From positions 1 to 64,000 of the forward strand of contig JBGARZ010000020.1 in the NCBI GenBank assembly GCA_044229975.1: a stretch of 64,000 nucleotides of DNA. Direction: 5' to 3'. Position 1 is the first letter of the stretch; each line of letters begins with the position of its first letter. Shown piece after piece: positions 7,636-14,004 of this stretch. The DNA comes from Polyangiales bacterium (lineage in GTDB: Bacteria > Myxococcota_A > Polyangia > Polyangiales > Ga0077539). Both the position numbers and the translations under genes were made by a program. The notes beneath the pieces were generated by a model. The model saw nothing but the letters and a program-made list of their open reading frames with translations, was not told the origin of the DNA and ran no database searches.

Positions 7636-7995
7636 ATGGCAACCGAAGGGTCGTTCGGGCAGATCGGGTTTCCCTCTTACGAGCTGCCCGTCGCGCCCTT
7701 CGCAAAGGCAGGGTCGGGGTTTCTGCACGTCCTCGGGTCGTGGGTGCTGGCCCGCGTCTCCGACGGCGGTCGCGAGGCCACCTTCAGCGTCGAGGTCGAC
7801 GAGCGCTTCGCCCGCGTGCGCCGCGTCCACGAGGGCACCGCGTCGATGGTGGAGGTCCGCCTCCCGTCGCCGATGTCCGCGAGCGACGTGGTGCAGACCC
7901 TCGCGCGCTGGGCGCCGTCGCAGTCCATGACGGCCCGCGTGCTGGCCGACGTTGGCGCCGCCGCGCGGGTCTCGCTCTCGCTCCCCACCGACTGA
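7636..7995 (+). CDS. Hypothetical protein
   Basis: ATG start, protein-like composition, fills the gap between neighbours. Confidence 0.55.
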   Translation: MATEGSFGQIGFPSYELPVAPFAKAGSGFLHVLGSWVLARVSDGGREATFSVEVDERFARVRRVHEGTASMVEVRLPSPMSASDVVQTLARWAPSQSMTARVLADVGAAARVSLSLPTD

Positions 7996-8116
7996 CCTTT
8001 CGTCTCCCACCACCTGTTGGCTGAACGCATCCGCGCGGGTGCGCAACCACTCGCACGCGGCACCACTGCCGTTCGGAAGGGTGACGGACGTGGGTCAGCA
8101 AGCGTCGGGTGGGGTC

Positions 8117-11100
8117 GTGCGTGCGTCGTTGGTGGCGCTGTGCCTCGGGTGCGTCGGGGTGCCGGTGGACGAGGCCCCCGCGGTCGGGACAGCGCGGCTG
8201 TCGGCGCCCGTCGAACTCGTCGCGTCGCCTGCGGCGCTCGGCTTCCGCGCCGAGGCATCGGGCTGGGGCTGTGCGCCCGCGGCGCTGCGGGTGCGCGGTG
8301 ACGTCGACGGGACGGTGACCGTCGCGGCCGGTGCGCGTGGAGGCGTCGCCTTCGGGACGGTGTCGGCGGTCGCGCCGCGGGTGAAGGTCGACGCCGACGG
8401 CGCGCTCTCGATGGACCGCAACGGCGTGGTCGAGCGCTGGCGCCCGGGGGCCGACGGGGTCGAGCAGAGCTGGACCTTCGACCGCGCGCCCGCGGGCGGG
8501 GTGACGGTGCGGGTGCGCTTCGCGGGGGCCCGCTACGACGGCCCCTCGGAGGGCGGGCTGCGCTTCGTCGACGCGGAGGGCTCCGCGCTGCACTACGGCG
8601 CCGCGACCTGGGTCGACGCGCGCGGCGAGCGCACCGCGGTGATCGAGCGGGTGGAGGGCGACGCGGTGGTGCTCACGGTGCCGGGCGACGTGGTCGCGCG
8701 CTCGGCCTTCCCGGCGGTGCTCGATCCCACGATCTCGGCGGAGGTCGCGGTGGACCCCGTGCCGCTCTACGTCCAGTCGCGCACCATCGTCGGCCGCGCG
8801 TCCATCGCGTCGAGCGGCGCCGGGCAGCTCGCGGTCTGGCAGGACGATCGCGCCATCCACGGGGTCTACGCGGCGCGCATCAGCGCGGCGGGGGCGGTGC
8901 TCGATCCCGCCAACCTCCTCCTCGCACCGTATGGGACGGGGCCGGTGGTGGCGTCGGACGGGGCCGGGTACCTCGTGGCCTGGAAGGGCACCTTCGACGA
9001 GATCTACTGGTCGCGCGTAGACGCGTCGGGCGCGATGCTCGATCCGGGCGGCGTGTCGCGGGCCGGCTCGCTCCGCGGCGGCGCCCTGGCGCTCGCCTTC
9101 GACGGCACCCGGTACGTCCTGGCCTGGTCGACGCCGGGCACCTCAGCCCCCTACGGGATCCAGGTCGCGCGCATCGGGCGGGACGGCGCGCTCCTCGACC
9201 CCACGGGCGTCGTCGTGTCGTCAGGGTCGGCCGTGCGGCGCAGCCCCGCCATCGCGTCGAACGCCGCCGGGTCGCTCGTCGCGTGGGAGGACCTCCGCGA
9301 CGGCGCGTCGCCCCGCGTCTATGCAGCGCGCGTGACCCCGGCGGGCGTCGTGAGCGACCCCGATGGGCGCGTGGTGAGCCTCGCGGCGGCCAACCAGACC
9401 GTGCCCTCGGTGGCGACCGACGGGACCAGCTTCCTCGTCGGGTGGTACGCGCTCATGGGCTCCGGCTCGCGGTCCCCGGGGCCGTACGCCGCGCTGGTCG
9501 GGCCGTCGGGCGCCACGCTGTCGATCGAGGCGCTGTGGCCGACGCCAGGCACCGACCGGGGGGAGGCGCCGGTGGCGGTGGCCTTCTCCGGCGACCGCTA
9601 CCTTGCGACCTGGACGGGCGGAACCCCGGTCACGGCGCCCGGGGTGTCCTACCTGCTGCCGCGCCTCTACGCGGTGCGCGTCGGCGCGTCGGGCAACCTC
9701 CTCGACGCCGCGCCGCGCACGCCGCAGCGCATCGACGCGATCACGCCGCCCTACTACCCGAACCTCACGCAGAGCAGCGCGGTGGCGCGGGCGGGCGGCT
9801 TCCGGCTGCTGTGGGTGCTCAGGGATGGCCTCGCGCCCTACCTGCGGAGCGTCGCCACCGACCTCGACGCCGCGCCGACGGACGCGCCCGTGACGGTCGA
9901 GACGGCGCCGGTCGACCAGATCCTCCCTCAGGTGGCGGCCAGCGCGAGCGGCTACCTCGTGGGCTGGATGGACGCCGGGCCGTACCTCCCGCAGTCCTCA
10001 TTCACCCCGCGCGCGGTGCGCCTCTCGTCGGCCGGCTCGCCGCTCGACGCGCCGTTCGACCTCTCGCCGCTGGAGTACAGCGGCCCCGACAACCCCTTCG
10101 CCCTGCGGCTCGCGGCCTTCGGCACCTCCTACCTGATCGGCTGGTCGCGCCCGGTCAGCCCGGCCCTGCTGATGCGACCGGTGCCTGTGTCCGGGGCGCC
10201 CGGCGCGGTCGCGCCATCCACGGAGGGGACGATCAGGGCGCTCGCGGCCGCGCGCACCAACGCGCTCGGCCTCGTCAGCGGGGGGGCGCGCCGCTTCGGA
10301 CCGGACGGGCGGGCGCTCGACGCCTTCCCGATCGCGCTGCCCTCGCTCGCCGAGGCGGGCGTTGCTTCTGACGGGACGAACTACCTCGTCTACGGGACGA
10401 TCACGCCCCCCGCGTGCGGCGCGACCTCGAGGTGCCCGCGGATCGCGACGGTTCGCCTCAACAGCGCTGGCGACCTGCTCGACGCATCGCCCGTTCCGCT
10501 CGCGGCGTCGGCCCAGCAGTCGCCCTCGAACGGGCGCTACGAGCCCGGCGCCGCCTCCGACGGGACGCGCTACCTGCTGACGTGGAGAGGTTCGGGCCTC
10601 GGCGGCGCCAACCTCGAGATCGCTGCGGCGCGCGTCGGCGCCGACGGCGTGGCGCTGGACGCGGCCCCGATCGTCGTGTCCTCGGCGGCCAGCGCGAAGC
10701 AGTCGCCCTCGGCGGCCCACGACGGCGCGTCGTGGGTGGTGGCGTGGGGCGACTCGCGCGACGGCAACAGCGCGTACGCGGCGCGGGTGAGCGCGGCGGG
10801 CGCGGCGCTCGACCCGGCGGGTGTGGCGGTCGCCACGGGGCTCAACGAGCTGCCCGCGGTGAGGGTCGCCTCGACCGGCGACGGCCGCTCGGCGGTGGTG
10901 TACTCGCGGCGCGCCACGGTGGCGACGCCGGTGTCGGCGCGGCTGCTGGTGCGGATGCTCTCCTTCGGCGACGCGGGGACGCCGGACGCGGGGACGCCGG
11001 ACGCGGGCATGACCGATGCGGGCGTGATCGTCGCGGACTCGGGTGTTGCGGACGTCGGGACGACGGATGGCGGCGCGCCGGACGTGGCTCCGGTGGACGC

Positions 11101-11308
11101 TGGCGGGGTCAGCGACGCGAGCGCCGTGGGCGCTTCCGCAGATGCGGGCGCGCAGGACGTGGTGACGGCGGACGTGCCGACCGCTCCTCCGCCCGAGGAC
11201 GGCGGCCTCTGCGACGTCGGTGGCGCTCCGGGTGCGCGCGGCGCGAGGGGCGCTTGGGCCTTCGCGGCGCTCGGGCTCGTCGGGCTGGCTCGCCGCCGCC
11301 GCCGGTAG
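8117..11308 (+). CDS. Large surface protein with beta-propeller-like repeats and MYXO-CTERM anchor (alternative GTG start at 8081)
   Basis: Signal ending LCLGC; repeated A(S/F/T)DG..YL(V/L).W units; DAG-rich stalk; C-terminus [23 protein letters not shown]. Confidence 0.8.
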
Positions 11309-11357
11309 GAGCCGTTCCCCTTGCGACGCGGACGACGCCCGTGATACCCGCTCTGAC

Positions 11358-11999
11358 ATGAGCGGCGTGGCGCTGCGTACGTACATCTTCCTCGACAGCC
11401 TGCAGCCGCAGCTGGCGTCGTTCATCGGCAAGACGGCGCGGGGGTTCCTGCCCATCCCGTCGATGGCGTCGCTCTGGGTGGAAATCGCCCCGGGCATGGC
11501 CATCAACCGGGTCACCGACCTCGCCCTCAAGGCCAGCCGGGTGCAGCCCGCCGTGCAGGTGGTCGAGCGCGCCTACGGGCTCCTCGAAGTGCACCACGAG
11601 GACAAGGGGCAGGTGATGGACGCTGGCAGCGCCATCCTCGCGTCGCTCGACCTCAAGGAGGAAGACCGGCTCGCGCCCAACCTCCCGACCAACCAGGTGC
11701 TGCGCGGCGTCGAGGCGTACCAGGCGCAGATCATCAACCGAAGCTCTTCGGGCATGATGATCCTGCCGGGTGAGTCGCTGCTCATCCTGGAGACCGACCC
11801 CGCGGGGTACATCGTGCTCGCGGCCAACGAGGCCGAGAAGGCCGCCGACGTGAAGCTGGTGCACATCCAGCCGTACGGGGCCTTCGGGCGCTTGTATCTC
11901 TCCGGGCGCGAGGCCGAGATCGACGCGGCAGCCGAGGCCGCGCGGGCGGCGCTCTCCAGCGTCAAGGGCCGCAAGCAGGAGACGCGGCTCGACCGCTGA
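11358..11999 (+). CDS. Bacterial microcompartment trimeric shell protein (BMC-T, double-stacking CsoS1D/CcmP-like)
   Basis: [60 protein letters not shown] motifs. Confidence 0.95.
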
Positions 12000-12040
12000 A
12001 CCGCACTGACTTTTATCCGACTGACCAAAGGAACCATCCA

Positions 12041-12340
12041 ATGAGCGACGCGCTGGGAATCATCGAGACGAAGGGTTTTGCGGCCGCGGTGCAGGCCGCC
12101 GACGCGATGGTGAAGGCCGCGCGGGTTCAGCTCGTCGGCTACGAGAAGGTCGGCGGGGGGTACACCTCGGTGATCGTTCGCGGGGACGTCGCCGCGGTGA
12201 AGGCCGCGACCGAGGCGGGCCAGCGCGAGGCCGAGCGCGTGGGCGAGACGGTGAGCGTGCTCATCATCCCGCGGCCGCACGCCAACATCGACGAGATCCT
12301 GCCGCTGGGCCGCGGCGCCGCGAAGCCCTCCGGCGCCTGA
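12041..12340 (+). CDS. Bacterial microcompartment hexameric shell protein (BMC-H, PF00936)
   Basis: [45 protein letters not shown] upstream. Confidence 0.97.
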
Positions 12341-12353
12341 GAGACGCTGCCCG

Positions 12354-12641
12354 ATGCTCATCGCTCGCGTCACCGGAACGCTCGTCGCCAGCCGCAAGGA
12401 GCCCACGCTCGACGGGCTCAAGCTCCTGGTGGTGCGCGGTTGTGACGTTCACGGCGAGCCCACCGGGGCGCCGCTGGTCGCCGCCGACGCCGTGGGCGCG
12501 GGCATCGGCGAGGTGGTGCTCATCGCAGCGGGCAGCTCGGCGCGCCAGACCGAGGCGACGAAAGATCGCCCGGTCGACGCGGTGATCATGGCGATCGTCG
12601 ATGCGCTCGACGTCGGCAGCGACACCACCTTCAAGAAGTAA
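12354..12641 (+). CDS. Bacterial microcompartment pentameric vertex protein (BMC-P, EutN/CcmL family, PF03319)
   Basis: [43 protein letters not shown]. Confidence 0.96.
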
Positions 12642-12747: not shown

Positions 12748-14004
12748 ATGAAGTTCGTCCGTCGATCGATCGGGGTGCTGCTGTGCGTGGTCGGCTGCGT
12801 GGGGGTGGACTCCGACGCCGACTCCATCGAGCAGGCGCTGACCGTGTGTCCCGAGCGCGTGACGCGCGACTCGCGCGGCGAGCCTCGCAACGCGGCGGGC
12901 CAGGTGCGCTACTGCTGGCCGGGCGAGGCGAAGTGCTTCTGCGACAGGGACAACGACTGCTACGCCGAGAGCGGCTACGTCGCGTGCCAGCCGCCGGGCG
13001 CCGATGCGGGCACGACCCTCGACGCGGGTCCGCGCGACACCGGAGTGAGTGACCGGGGTCCGCTCGATACGGGTCCGCGTGACACTGGACCGCGTGACAC
13101 CGGCCCGGTGGATACGGGTCCTCGTGACACCGGGGTCGTCGACACGGGGCCGCGCGACAGCGGCGGCGGAACGACTCCGCCAGCGGACACCGTGAGCTAC
13201 ACGGGGAGCTTCGCGGTGCGCAACGGTCGCTCGCGGGCAGTGCTGCGCGTGGCGGGCCTCGACCGCGACGTCACGGTGTACCTCCCGTCGTCACGCAGCG
13301 CGGCACCGGCGCTGGTGCTGGGCTTCCACGGCACCAACGGGTCGGGCGACGTGATGCTCGACGAGAGCGGGGCGCGCACGATGGCCGACCGCAACGGGGT
13401 GGTGTTCATCGCGCCGGACTCGCGGTGGATGCCGCGCGGCGACTGGGACCACGCGACCGAAGAGACCTACTGGGAGACCTCGCCCAGCACCAACCCCAAC
13501 ACCAACCCCGACCTGCTGCTCGTGCGGGCGATCATCATGGAGGCGCAGCGGCGCTTCGGCGTCGACCCGCGGCGCGTCTACGCGATGGGGCACTCCAACG
13601 GAGGGTTCTTCGCGGAGCTGGTGGCCACGCAGATCACGTCGCGCATCGCGGGCTTCGCGACGAGCTCGGCGGGCCTCGTGCGGTGCGCCACCACGACGTC
13701 GTGCCGCTTCCAGGGCAGCGGGACGACCTGCGCGTCGCTGCGCACCCAGTCGGGCTGGTGCAACTGCACCGGCACCGACAAGCCGGGACCCATCCCGACG
13801 AGCGGCCGCATCCCGCCGGGGTACCTCGCGCACGGGACGCGCGACCCGCTGGTGTCGGTGCAGTACACGTGCGCGCTGGCCGAGCGCATGGCGACGGCTG
13901 GAGCGACCACGTCGGTGGTCCTTCGCAACGGCGACGGGCACGTACTGCCCTCGACCTTCGCGCTCGACGCGTGGTCGTTTTTGTCACCGTTGCGGCTGCC
14001 GTGA
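12748..14004 (+). CDS. Lipoprotein with Cys-rich N-terminal module and LpqC/PHB-depolymerase-like esterase domain
   Basis: Lipobox VVGC; LVLGFHG, VDPRRVYAMGHSNGG nucleophile elbow, HGTRDPLV, GDGH; GAGGGG RBS. Confidence 0.85.
   Translation: MKFVRRSIGVLLCVVGCVGVDSDADSIEQALTVCPERVTRDSRGEPRNAAGQVRYCWPGEAKCFCDRDNDCYAESGYVACQPPGADAGTTLDAGPRDTGVSDRGPLDTGPRDTGPRDTGPVDTGPRDTGVVDTGPRDSGGGTTPPADTVSYTGSFAVRNGRSRAVLRVAGLDRDVTVYLPSSRSAAPALVLGFHGTNGSGDVMLDESGARTMADRNGVVFIAPDSRWMPRGDWDHATEETYWETSPSTNPNTNPDLLLVRAIIMEAQRRFGVDPRRVYAMGHSNGGFFAELVATQITSRIAGFATSSAGLVRCATTTSCRFQGSGTTCASLRTQSGWCNCTGTDKPGPIPTSGRIPPGYLAHGTRDPLVSVQYTCALAERMATAGATTSVVLRNGDGHVLPSTFALDAWSFLSPLRLP
13021..13161 (+). repeat. Imperfect 15-bp coding repeats encoding DTGP(R/V) linker
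   Basis: DAGPR DTGVS DRGPL DTGPR DTGPR DTGPV DTGPR DTGVV DTGPR DS in frame. Confidence 0.85.

Follow-up and report, generated by a model that had tools for sequence, protein, structure and literature searches.

The window, which is the whole stretch of 64,000 nucleotides analysed here, at the beginning of contig C26 in a genome of 10.0 Mb (39 contigs, 93% complete, 3% estimated contamination), shows an operon of three genes encoding bacterial microcompartment (BMC) shell proteins, and the question raised by this locus is what its shell would enclose. The first-pass annotation described it as a minimal shell-only operon without cargo enzyme, similar to the shell genes of Haliangium ochraceum (HO) and belonging to a dispersed-locus or cargo-unknown organelle, and proposed it as a natural three-gene shell kit. 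The frames of the BMC-T, BMC-H and BMC-P genes (Table 1) are all intact and co-directional, and their products match PF00936, PF00936 and PF03319, respectively, over the Pfam cut-off, which upholds the tandem of one trimer, one hexamer and one pentamer gene. The similarity to HO also stands, since the closest solved relatives of all three are HO proteins. The BMC-T belongs to the double-stacking, permuted, CcmP-like class (T-dp) and its best native PDB match is HO-5816 (E 4.9e-99); the BMC-H matches HO-5815 (E 1.7e-39), with an engineered BMC-H tandem fusion scoring higher in the same search, and the BMC-P matches the pentamer of the HO shell entry 5v74 (E 1.6e-35). The CcmP model gives 270 bits on the T-dp, below its cut-off of 340, and all the carboxysome equivalog models (CcmK/CcmL/CcmP and CsoS) are below cut-off. 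The BMC-H, which contains MVKAA, KVGGG and PRPH motifs, is the only single-domain hexamer of the genome (a single tblastn match), and the BMC-P is one of three copies. Silent codon changes exceed replacements between the window T-dp and those of six relatives, for example 49 against 11 of 213, and by this measure the window shell genes are under purifying selection.

Table 1. Positions of the features of the window and of the related genes elsewhere in the genome (C, contig; L, locus; window positions without prefix)
Feature	Position	Strand	Remarks
Large predicted surface protein	7952-11308	+	1118 aa frame; repeated beta-rich motifs; hydrophobic-plus-Arg tail
Predicted leaderless sigma70-like promoter of the window operon	11321..11350	+	TTGCGA, 18 nt, TACCCG preceded by TG
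BMC-T (PF00936), T-dp	11358..11999	+	213 aa; HO BMC-T2 counterpart
BMC-H hexamer (PF00936)	12041..12340	+	99 aa; best native PDB match HO-5815
BMC-P vertex pentamer (PF03319)	12354..12641	+	95 aa; best PDB match 5v74_A1
Lipoprotein-like protein	12748-14004	+	DTG/PRD repeat linker; PHB-depolymerase-like esterase domain, below cut-off
Second T-dp	C38:286739		best PDB match 5v76, presumably HO T3
T-s (BMC-T)	C32:261620		HO T1 entry 5dih, E 5.5e-23; PduT-type entries slightly better
BMC-P, BMC-P, then class II aldolase	C36:60744-61980		Pfam
Acylating aldehyde dehydrogenase (AldDH), EutE-type	C23:178993-180435		NF011927, 645 bits (cut-off 403)
eutC-eutL-eat (eat, ethanolamine permease)	C23:169875-172713		NCBIfam, over cut-off
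EutL	C23:171176		NF011934, over cut-off
eutB, lone gene	C23:120975		NCBIfam, over cut-off
deoC	C32:136404-137243		NCBIfam, over cut-off
AckA-PduL fusion (acetate kinase + phosphotransacylase)	C13:37390-39201 (L020:1391-3199)		untagged

The proteins encoded on both sides of the operon look exported by their sequence. The upstream one shows no Pfam or NCBIfam match and ends in a tail that we take to be MYXO-CTERM-like. In a set of 27 T-dp loci, matches to the upstream gene are confined to its own locus, and those to the downstream gene to its own locus and five loci of the same genus (five of the eight same-genus genomes); the flanks of T-H-P are, in these comparisons, poorly conserved. Metatranscriptome contigs of four runs from three studies, at an identity of at least 85%, cover all three shell genes and some of them bridge the H-P junction. 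They were discounted as proof of expression since they come from relatives and DNA carry-over is possible, and the bare flanks are uninformative because of their poor conservation. Comparison of the eut/aldDH region with three RNA runs and one DNA run was also discounted, as neighbouring genes are covered too and short foreign matches swamp the signal. Neither RNA comparison is used here for expression or habitat.

Genome-wide family searches for aldehyde dehydrogenase, PduL, EutB, EutC, DeoC and iron-containing alcohol dehydrogenase (Fe-ADH) give zero matches on the window contig, and neither does a tblastn search with the class II aldolase, so that the earlier statement that the 64 kb contain no cargo holds for these families. 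Taken genome-wide it fails, since AldDH, DeoC, EutB, EutC and a class II aldolase are encoded elsewhere. The shell and enzyme genes are in eight places on five contigs, as expected of the dispersed locus that the first-pass annotation had considered; none of these places comes closer than 11 kb to a contig end, and each component is single-copy in the genome (tblastn). The shell inventory is the full HO type I set (one H, three P, two T-dp and one T-s) plus EutL, in which the T-s is assigned mainly by its synteny in relatives, because PduT-type entries match it slightly better than HO T1. That annotation had also remarked that a standard HO set elsewhere would make the operon a split known locus, and the AldDH, the second T-dp, the T-s and the two BMC-P with the aldolase were all found. 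Because this set is present, the native shell would be expected to use the products of eight shell genes instead of three; the idea of a three-gene kit gives way to a genome encoding five further shell proteins, and that of a cargo-unknown organelle to one with AldDH, DeoC and EutC bearing N-terminal helices like encapsulation peptides (EPs), together with EutB. The genome also encodes a pyrimidine-nucleoside phosphorylase and a cobalamin adenosyltransferase; within its 93% completeness, a PGM-family candidate was the only trace of a DeoB phosphopentomutase, which was not found, and no EutA reactivase is over cut-off, with a single sub-cut-off match of 46 positions. An ECF sigma factor gene (L013:7970-8707; C36:59969-60706) is directly upstream of the satellite with the two BMC-P and the aldolase, which shows its own TTGACA...TAACGT element all the same. 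Immediately beyond the ethanolamine permease gene there is a pair of genes with lower GC3 (L012:5927-7875; C23:167926-169874) encoding an AAA-ATPase and an HNH-like protein, presumably resembling a defence module.

How the three genes came to stand alone is indicated by a set of 41 genomes, which includes the window genome, 24 of the same family and 16 of the same order. AldDH is found in 30 of them, BMC-P in 30 and T-dp in 29, and these are the same genomes except for one, 77% complete, without T-dp. Of the 30 aldDH loci, 12 have the gene immediately after T-H-P, among them all five from other families, and the operon order of these relatives is T-H-P-aldDH-T. The aldDH is apart from T-H-P in the other 18, including all nine of the window's genus. 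Intermediates also occur, in which T-s still comes after aldDH (five genomes) or aldDH keeps to the contig of T-H-P at a distance of 3.5 or about 7 kb; of the 80 wider T-dp loci, 68 contain an aldDH. In the aldDH tree, all outgroups have the joined state and three changes are needed, at least two of them forced, so that a single fission event is not supported; by this tree the form with three genes arose by a split and is derived, nested within one family. Wherever a same-family locus extends far enough, its T, H and P genes are together, and eutB and eutC of the 25 family genomes are adjacent in 14, apart in 10 and undecidable in one. The same split is present in 8 of 8 same-genus genomes, with proteins 82-98% identical. 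In three relatives, aldDH or T-dp is frameshifted or interrupted by stops (aldDH in G021, locus L127; T-dp in G025, locus L050; and G002:C37:12216-12858), and G002 contains a second, frameshifted T-dp and a fourth BMC-P; these interrupted copies could reflect sequencing error, strain mixing or decay.

The predicted promoter of the window operon ends 7 nt before the ATG of the T-dp. All 23 T-dp loci of the family have a TA 13-20 nt upstream of the start, in most cases within GTGATAC following TTG, and a strict consensus promoter scan gives 0 sites at the window operon; from this spacing we infer a leaderless promoter. A TAnnnT 15-17 nt upstream of the start is seen for all 18 detached aldDH genes and for 1 of 12 operon-embedded ones, kin in these counts not being independent, and the joined genes mostly have Shine-Dalgarno-like motifs upstream. 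Across the genome, TAnnnT before ATG codons is strongly enriched at 12-16 nt (172 at -14 vs about 20 between -24 and -40), which suggests that leaderless transcription is widespread in the lineage. Leaderless starts would thus be a trait of the genome and not specific to BMC genes. As a shared regulator site, only -10-like boxes were seen by eye upstream of ten loci.

AldDH, DeoC and EutC each begin with an amphipathic helix, which is conserved, and then a variable linker; the hydrophobic moment of the helices is from 0.48 to 0.54 (0.48 in AldDH). Passages of Du 2025 (PMC12747264) describe this helix-linker arrangement as the form of an EP, and the three helices are interpreted as peptides that would load all three enzymes into one shell. 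A profile of these N-termini was built after dropping the training rows without pattern match (3 of 57 for DeoC and AldDH, 13 of 25 for EutC), with a training-window pattern that was not blind, having been written with all three protein sets known. When trained on AldDH and EutC, it places DeoC first among the non-training matches of 13,376 frames genome-wide, with a response-regulator helix as runner-up (18.3 vs 20.7); EutC also ranks first when left out, and AldDH only about 20th. The best extra match, a response-regulator C-terminal helix, was rejected as a fourth tagged protein. EutC N-termini of the phylum reach only -5.2 to 12.3, and the profile is weak.

The association of the DeoC helix with the shell was followed in two samples. 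In near relatives (30 of 36 DeoC matches covered), inspection by eye shows the helix in 26 of the 27 loci with a shell, the remaining one being cut by a contig end, and in none of three shell-less ones. The second sample contains 34 hand-picked genomes of several families, 15 shell-bearing and 19 others, of which 14 have DeoC, and was scored with a profile whose training set contained no DeoC: DeoC is present with the helix in 15 of 15 shell-bearing genomes (3.6-34.1) and none of the 14 shell-less DeoCs shows it (2.0 or less), a thin margin between the lowest shell-positive score of 3.6 and the highest shell-negative score of 2.0. Five of the 80 wider T-dp loci have rpiB-deoC directly upstream of T-dp, and four of them continue with H-P-aldDH-T-P-P. 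A tree of the catalytic domain, from a quick search that took in 13 of the 27 shell-bearing rows from near relatives, separates 28 detached DeoCs of shell-bearing genomes and five operon DeoCs from 17 shell-less ones with an SH-aLRT of 90, which is below the starred level; in two families, shell-bearing and shell-less members are on opposite sides of this branch. The DeoC linker of many other families shows a cysteine-rich segment (e.g. C-x6-C-x4-C in loci L183-L186, L193-L196, L199, L201, L202 and L208), which is missing in the window's family, and the EutC linker of that family has a C-x6/7-H-x-C motif; both are possible metal sites.

The ethanolamine genes show a looser association. In a phylum sample of 401 genomes, in which T-dp-positive means a match at 1e-40 and may include some other BMC types, T-dp is found in 172 and EutB in 114: 101 contain both, 71 only T-dp, 13 only EutB and 216 neither. 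EutB is thus present in 101 of 172 T-dp-positive genomes vs 13 of 229 T-dp-negative ones, in counts where kin are not independent, and in 24 of 24 other same-family genomes. Among the best 30 EutB loci, EutL adjoins EutC in 24 of 24 shell-positive loci with EutC and in none of three shell-negative ones, and three shell-positive loci are without EutC nearby. Since EutB is absent from 71 of the 172 T-dp-positive genomes, ethanolamine is regarded as an optional input.

Other enzymes were considered as cargo. The AckA-PduL fusion was rejected as dedicated cargo, being untagged and having a distribution that does not track the shell, with presence in 15 of the 24 genomes of the family, in none of 5 further shell-bearing genomes and in three without a shell; PduL-family matches with similarly long frames occur in 19 of the 41 genomes. 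Fe-ADH, whose sole copy is untagged, below all cut-offs and in an unrelated neighbourhood, and RpiB, untagged and encoded in an unrelated neighbourhood after fabF (C11:505952), were rejected as well. No EP-tagged alcohol dehydrogenase or phosphotransacylase was found in the genome. The class II aldolase of the BMC-P satellite shows all family models far below cut-off, the nearest including L-fuculose-phosphate aldolases; the hydrophobic moment of its C-terminal helix is 0.25, vs 0.48-0.54 in the tagged enzymes, and this helix is outside the top 25 in every peptide scan. A second class II aldolase (L253; C23:143612-144253), 37% identical to that of the satellite, has a short hydrophobic C-terminal helix and is encoded between eutB and eutC, divergently from an aconitase-like gene.

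DeoC converts deoxyribose-5-phosphate into glyceraldehyde-3-phosphate and acetaldehyde, the B12-dependent EutBC converts ethanolamine into acetaldehyde and ammonia, and EutE-type AldDH yields acetyl-CoA and NADH. As both inputs give acetaldehyde and AldDH turns it into acetyl-CoA, the organelle is read as an acetaldehyde trap: T-H-P is probably the shell-core piece of a scattered HO-type metabolosome, likely fed by deoxyribose-5-phosphate and ethanolamine. In such a compartment, EutB would enter the shell riding with EutC, EutL would admit ethanolamine or B12, and the substrates might derive from DNA and phosphatidylethanolamine of prey or necromass. With neither alcohol dehydrogenase nor phosphotransacylase found in tagged form, the cofactors would have to cross the shell, and CoA, NAD and the products would presumably do so through the T-dp pores, which may be gated. 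An operon like those of the sugar-phosphate utilisation (SPU) BMCs, with the order rpiB-deoC-T-H-P-aldDH-T-P-P, may have broken up stepwise, the detached genes staying expressed by gaining leaderless promoters of their own. A broader reading carries about an even chance: that the HO organelle is a shattered SPU operon with a tagged, detached DeoC as its signature and a tagged ethanolamine lyase in over half of the shell-bearing myxobacteria, a two-input acetaldehyde trap serving the use of prey DNA and membrane lipid, present in about 40% of the phylum and distributed here over eight unlinked loci with leaderless promoters.

The acetaldehyde trap leaves the class II aldolase beside two BMC-P genes unexplained, and this adjacency, the aldolase in 24 type I satellite loci counted in a passage of Sutter 2021 (PMC8217296), and the L-fuculose-phosphate aldolases among its nearest models, agree with a split HO organelle whose main substrate would be a fuculose- or rhamnulose-1-phosphate-like sugar, cleaved to lactaldehyde or similar, with DeoC and EutBC as side inputs. 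We consider this unlikely, because the aldolase lacks a convincing family match and a helix of comparable moment, whereas DeoC is tagged in all examined shell-bearing genomes with an intact 5' end. Two shells made at different times from a shared pool of H and P, one with T-dp, DeoC and AldDH and the other with EutL, EutBC and AldDH in separate lumens, would account for eutC-eutL-eat being predicted to form a transcription unit of its own, preceded by its own TA element, and for the T-dp-positive genomes missing the ethanolamine module. The genome, however, contains only one BMC-H and one acylating AldDH, no dedicated regulator was seen beside the eut genes, and the AldDH, DeoC and EutC peptides are mutually similar, so that we think this arrangement quite improbable.

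A self-sufficient shell, empty or non-metabolic, to which the scattered enzymes would be unrelated or relics, would fit three genes under purifying selection that are never separated in same-family loci with room to show it. It would also fit the sufficiency of H, T and P for a closed shell, a point of the first-pass annotation that has been established with HO proteins: H, T2 and P of HO assemble alone in E. coli, as reported in part of Hagen 2018 (PMC6056538). Yet the full HO set is in the genome, AldDH and shell co-occur across the 41 genomes, the tags are conserved in detached genes, and the joined state is found in all outgroup families with the split state nested within one family; such a shell is very improbable here. 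The notion that the scatter is an artefact of binning or assembly, for which 39 contigs and 3% estimated contamination could speak, deserves hardly any credence and is already largely refuted by the distance of every locus from contig ends, the recurrence of the split in all eight same-genus genomes with 82-98% identical proteins, and the single copy of all components.

The ideas themselves are earlier than this analysis and were based on fewer cases; new here is the support for the job of the HO organelle, from the DeoC tag, the DeoC tree and the co-occurrence of EutB. In the passages of Sutter 2021 (PMC8217296), the HO function is called 'enigmatic', EP-like extensions are noted on 'some' detached PF01791 enzymes, the EUT module is counted in 4 of 41 loci, and both DNA-sugar catabolism and an ethanolamine add-on are already suggested for HO. 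Compared with these catalogue counts, the tagged DeoC and the EUT module appear far more general in the present samples. Parts of Du 2025 (PMC12747264) describe SPU-type compartments of deep Myxococcota and Hodarchaeales that recruited EP-bearing DERA and AldDH. A literature search, with most subscription papers outside its reach, found no paper testing native HO cargo. The counts and the tree lead to specific predictions on tagged enzymes and substrates that are cheap to test, and nominate three peptides as candidates for native targeting to a shell type much used in engineering; the case also cautions that typing BMCs by locus overlooks cargo in lineages with easily detaching genes.

Among known systems, HO type I is the reference, with one H, three P, two T-dp and one T-s in the passages of Sutter 2021 (PMC8217296) and a shell-gene count also given in part of Axen 2014 (PMC4207490); the H. 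ochraceum layout used for comparison was taken in part from the former. The window genome shares its shell set, an acylating AldDH with an EP-like helix and the satellite of two BMC-P and a class II aldolase, and differs in that aldDH and T-s are each detached, eutB is parted from eutC-eutL-eat, the genes are in eight places and EutL is extra. As the catalogue text calls AldDH together with the shell genes in the main locus typical of type I (Sutter 2021), not obligatory, the genome is filed as a further-split HO type I variant, and the catalogue locus diagrams may already contain similar split loci. The engineered minimal shells HT1P, HT2P and HT3P likewise have one hexamer, one trimer and one pentamer, HT2P being the window combination, but they are synthetic, the yield of HT2P is below that of the T1 or T3 versions in the sections of Hagen 2018 (PMC6056538), HT1P is the minimal shell used in those of Doron 2024 (PMC10853475), and the window genome encodes five further shell proteins. 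Taken alone, T-H-P is an unremarkable operon, split off from an organelle already in the catalogue, and minimal HO shells are in routine laboratory use.

The fragmented (FRAG) BMC types, as far as the Sutter 2021 passages describe them, resemble this genome in shell genes spread over as many as six places, in a BMC-P triplet and in shell-only loci, and differ in belonging to other phyla and in having no EP matches, whereas an HO-like shell and three EP-like tags are found here. EUT3 and the SPU6/EUT-module loci also combine EutBC with EutL and T-dp, and the HO satellite EutB is placed in the EUT3 clade, but EUT3 forms a single contiguous locus in which there is one BMC-P (same passages of Sutter 2021). 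The EUT module of HO and SPU satellites is represented by EutB, EutC and an EutL-type BMC-T, EutA not being found, and unlike a canonical metabolosome the genome shows no tagged alcohol dehydrogenase or phosphotransacylase. A record titled as a Klebsiella pneumoniae metagenome-assembled genome (L309), probably mislabelled, contains an HO type II-like locus (T-H-P-aldDH-T-P-P). SPU5 and SPU7 are named in Sutter 2021 (PMC8217296), in the part consulted, as the types nearest to HO. Here, DeoC (PF01791) and RpiB (PF02502) are encoded outside the BMC locus and RpiB is untagged, which differs from SPU; shared with SPU are a DeoC with an EP-like tag, an EutE-like AldDH and a BMC-P triplet. The DeoC groups with the operon DeoCs, and the five rpiB-deoC-T-H loci, four of them with P-aldDH-T-P-P, show the gene order of HO loci.
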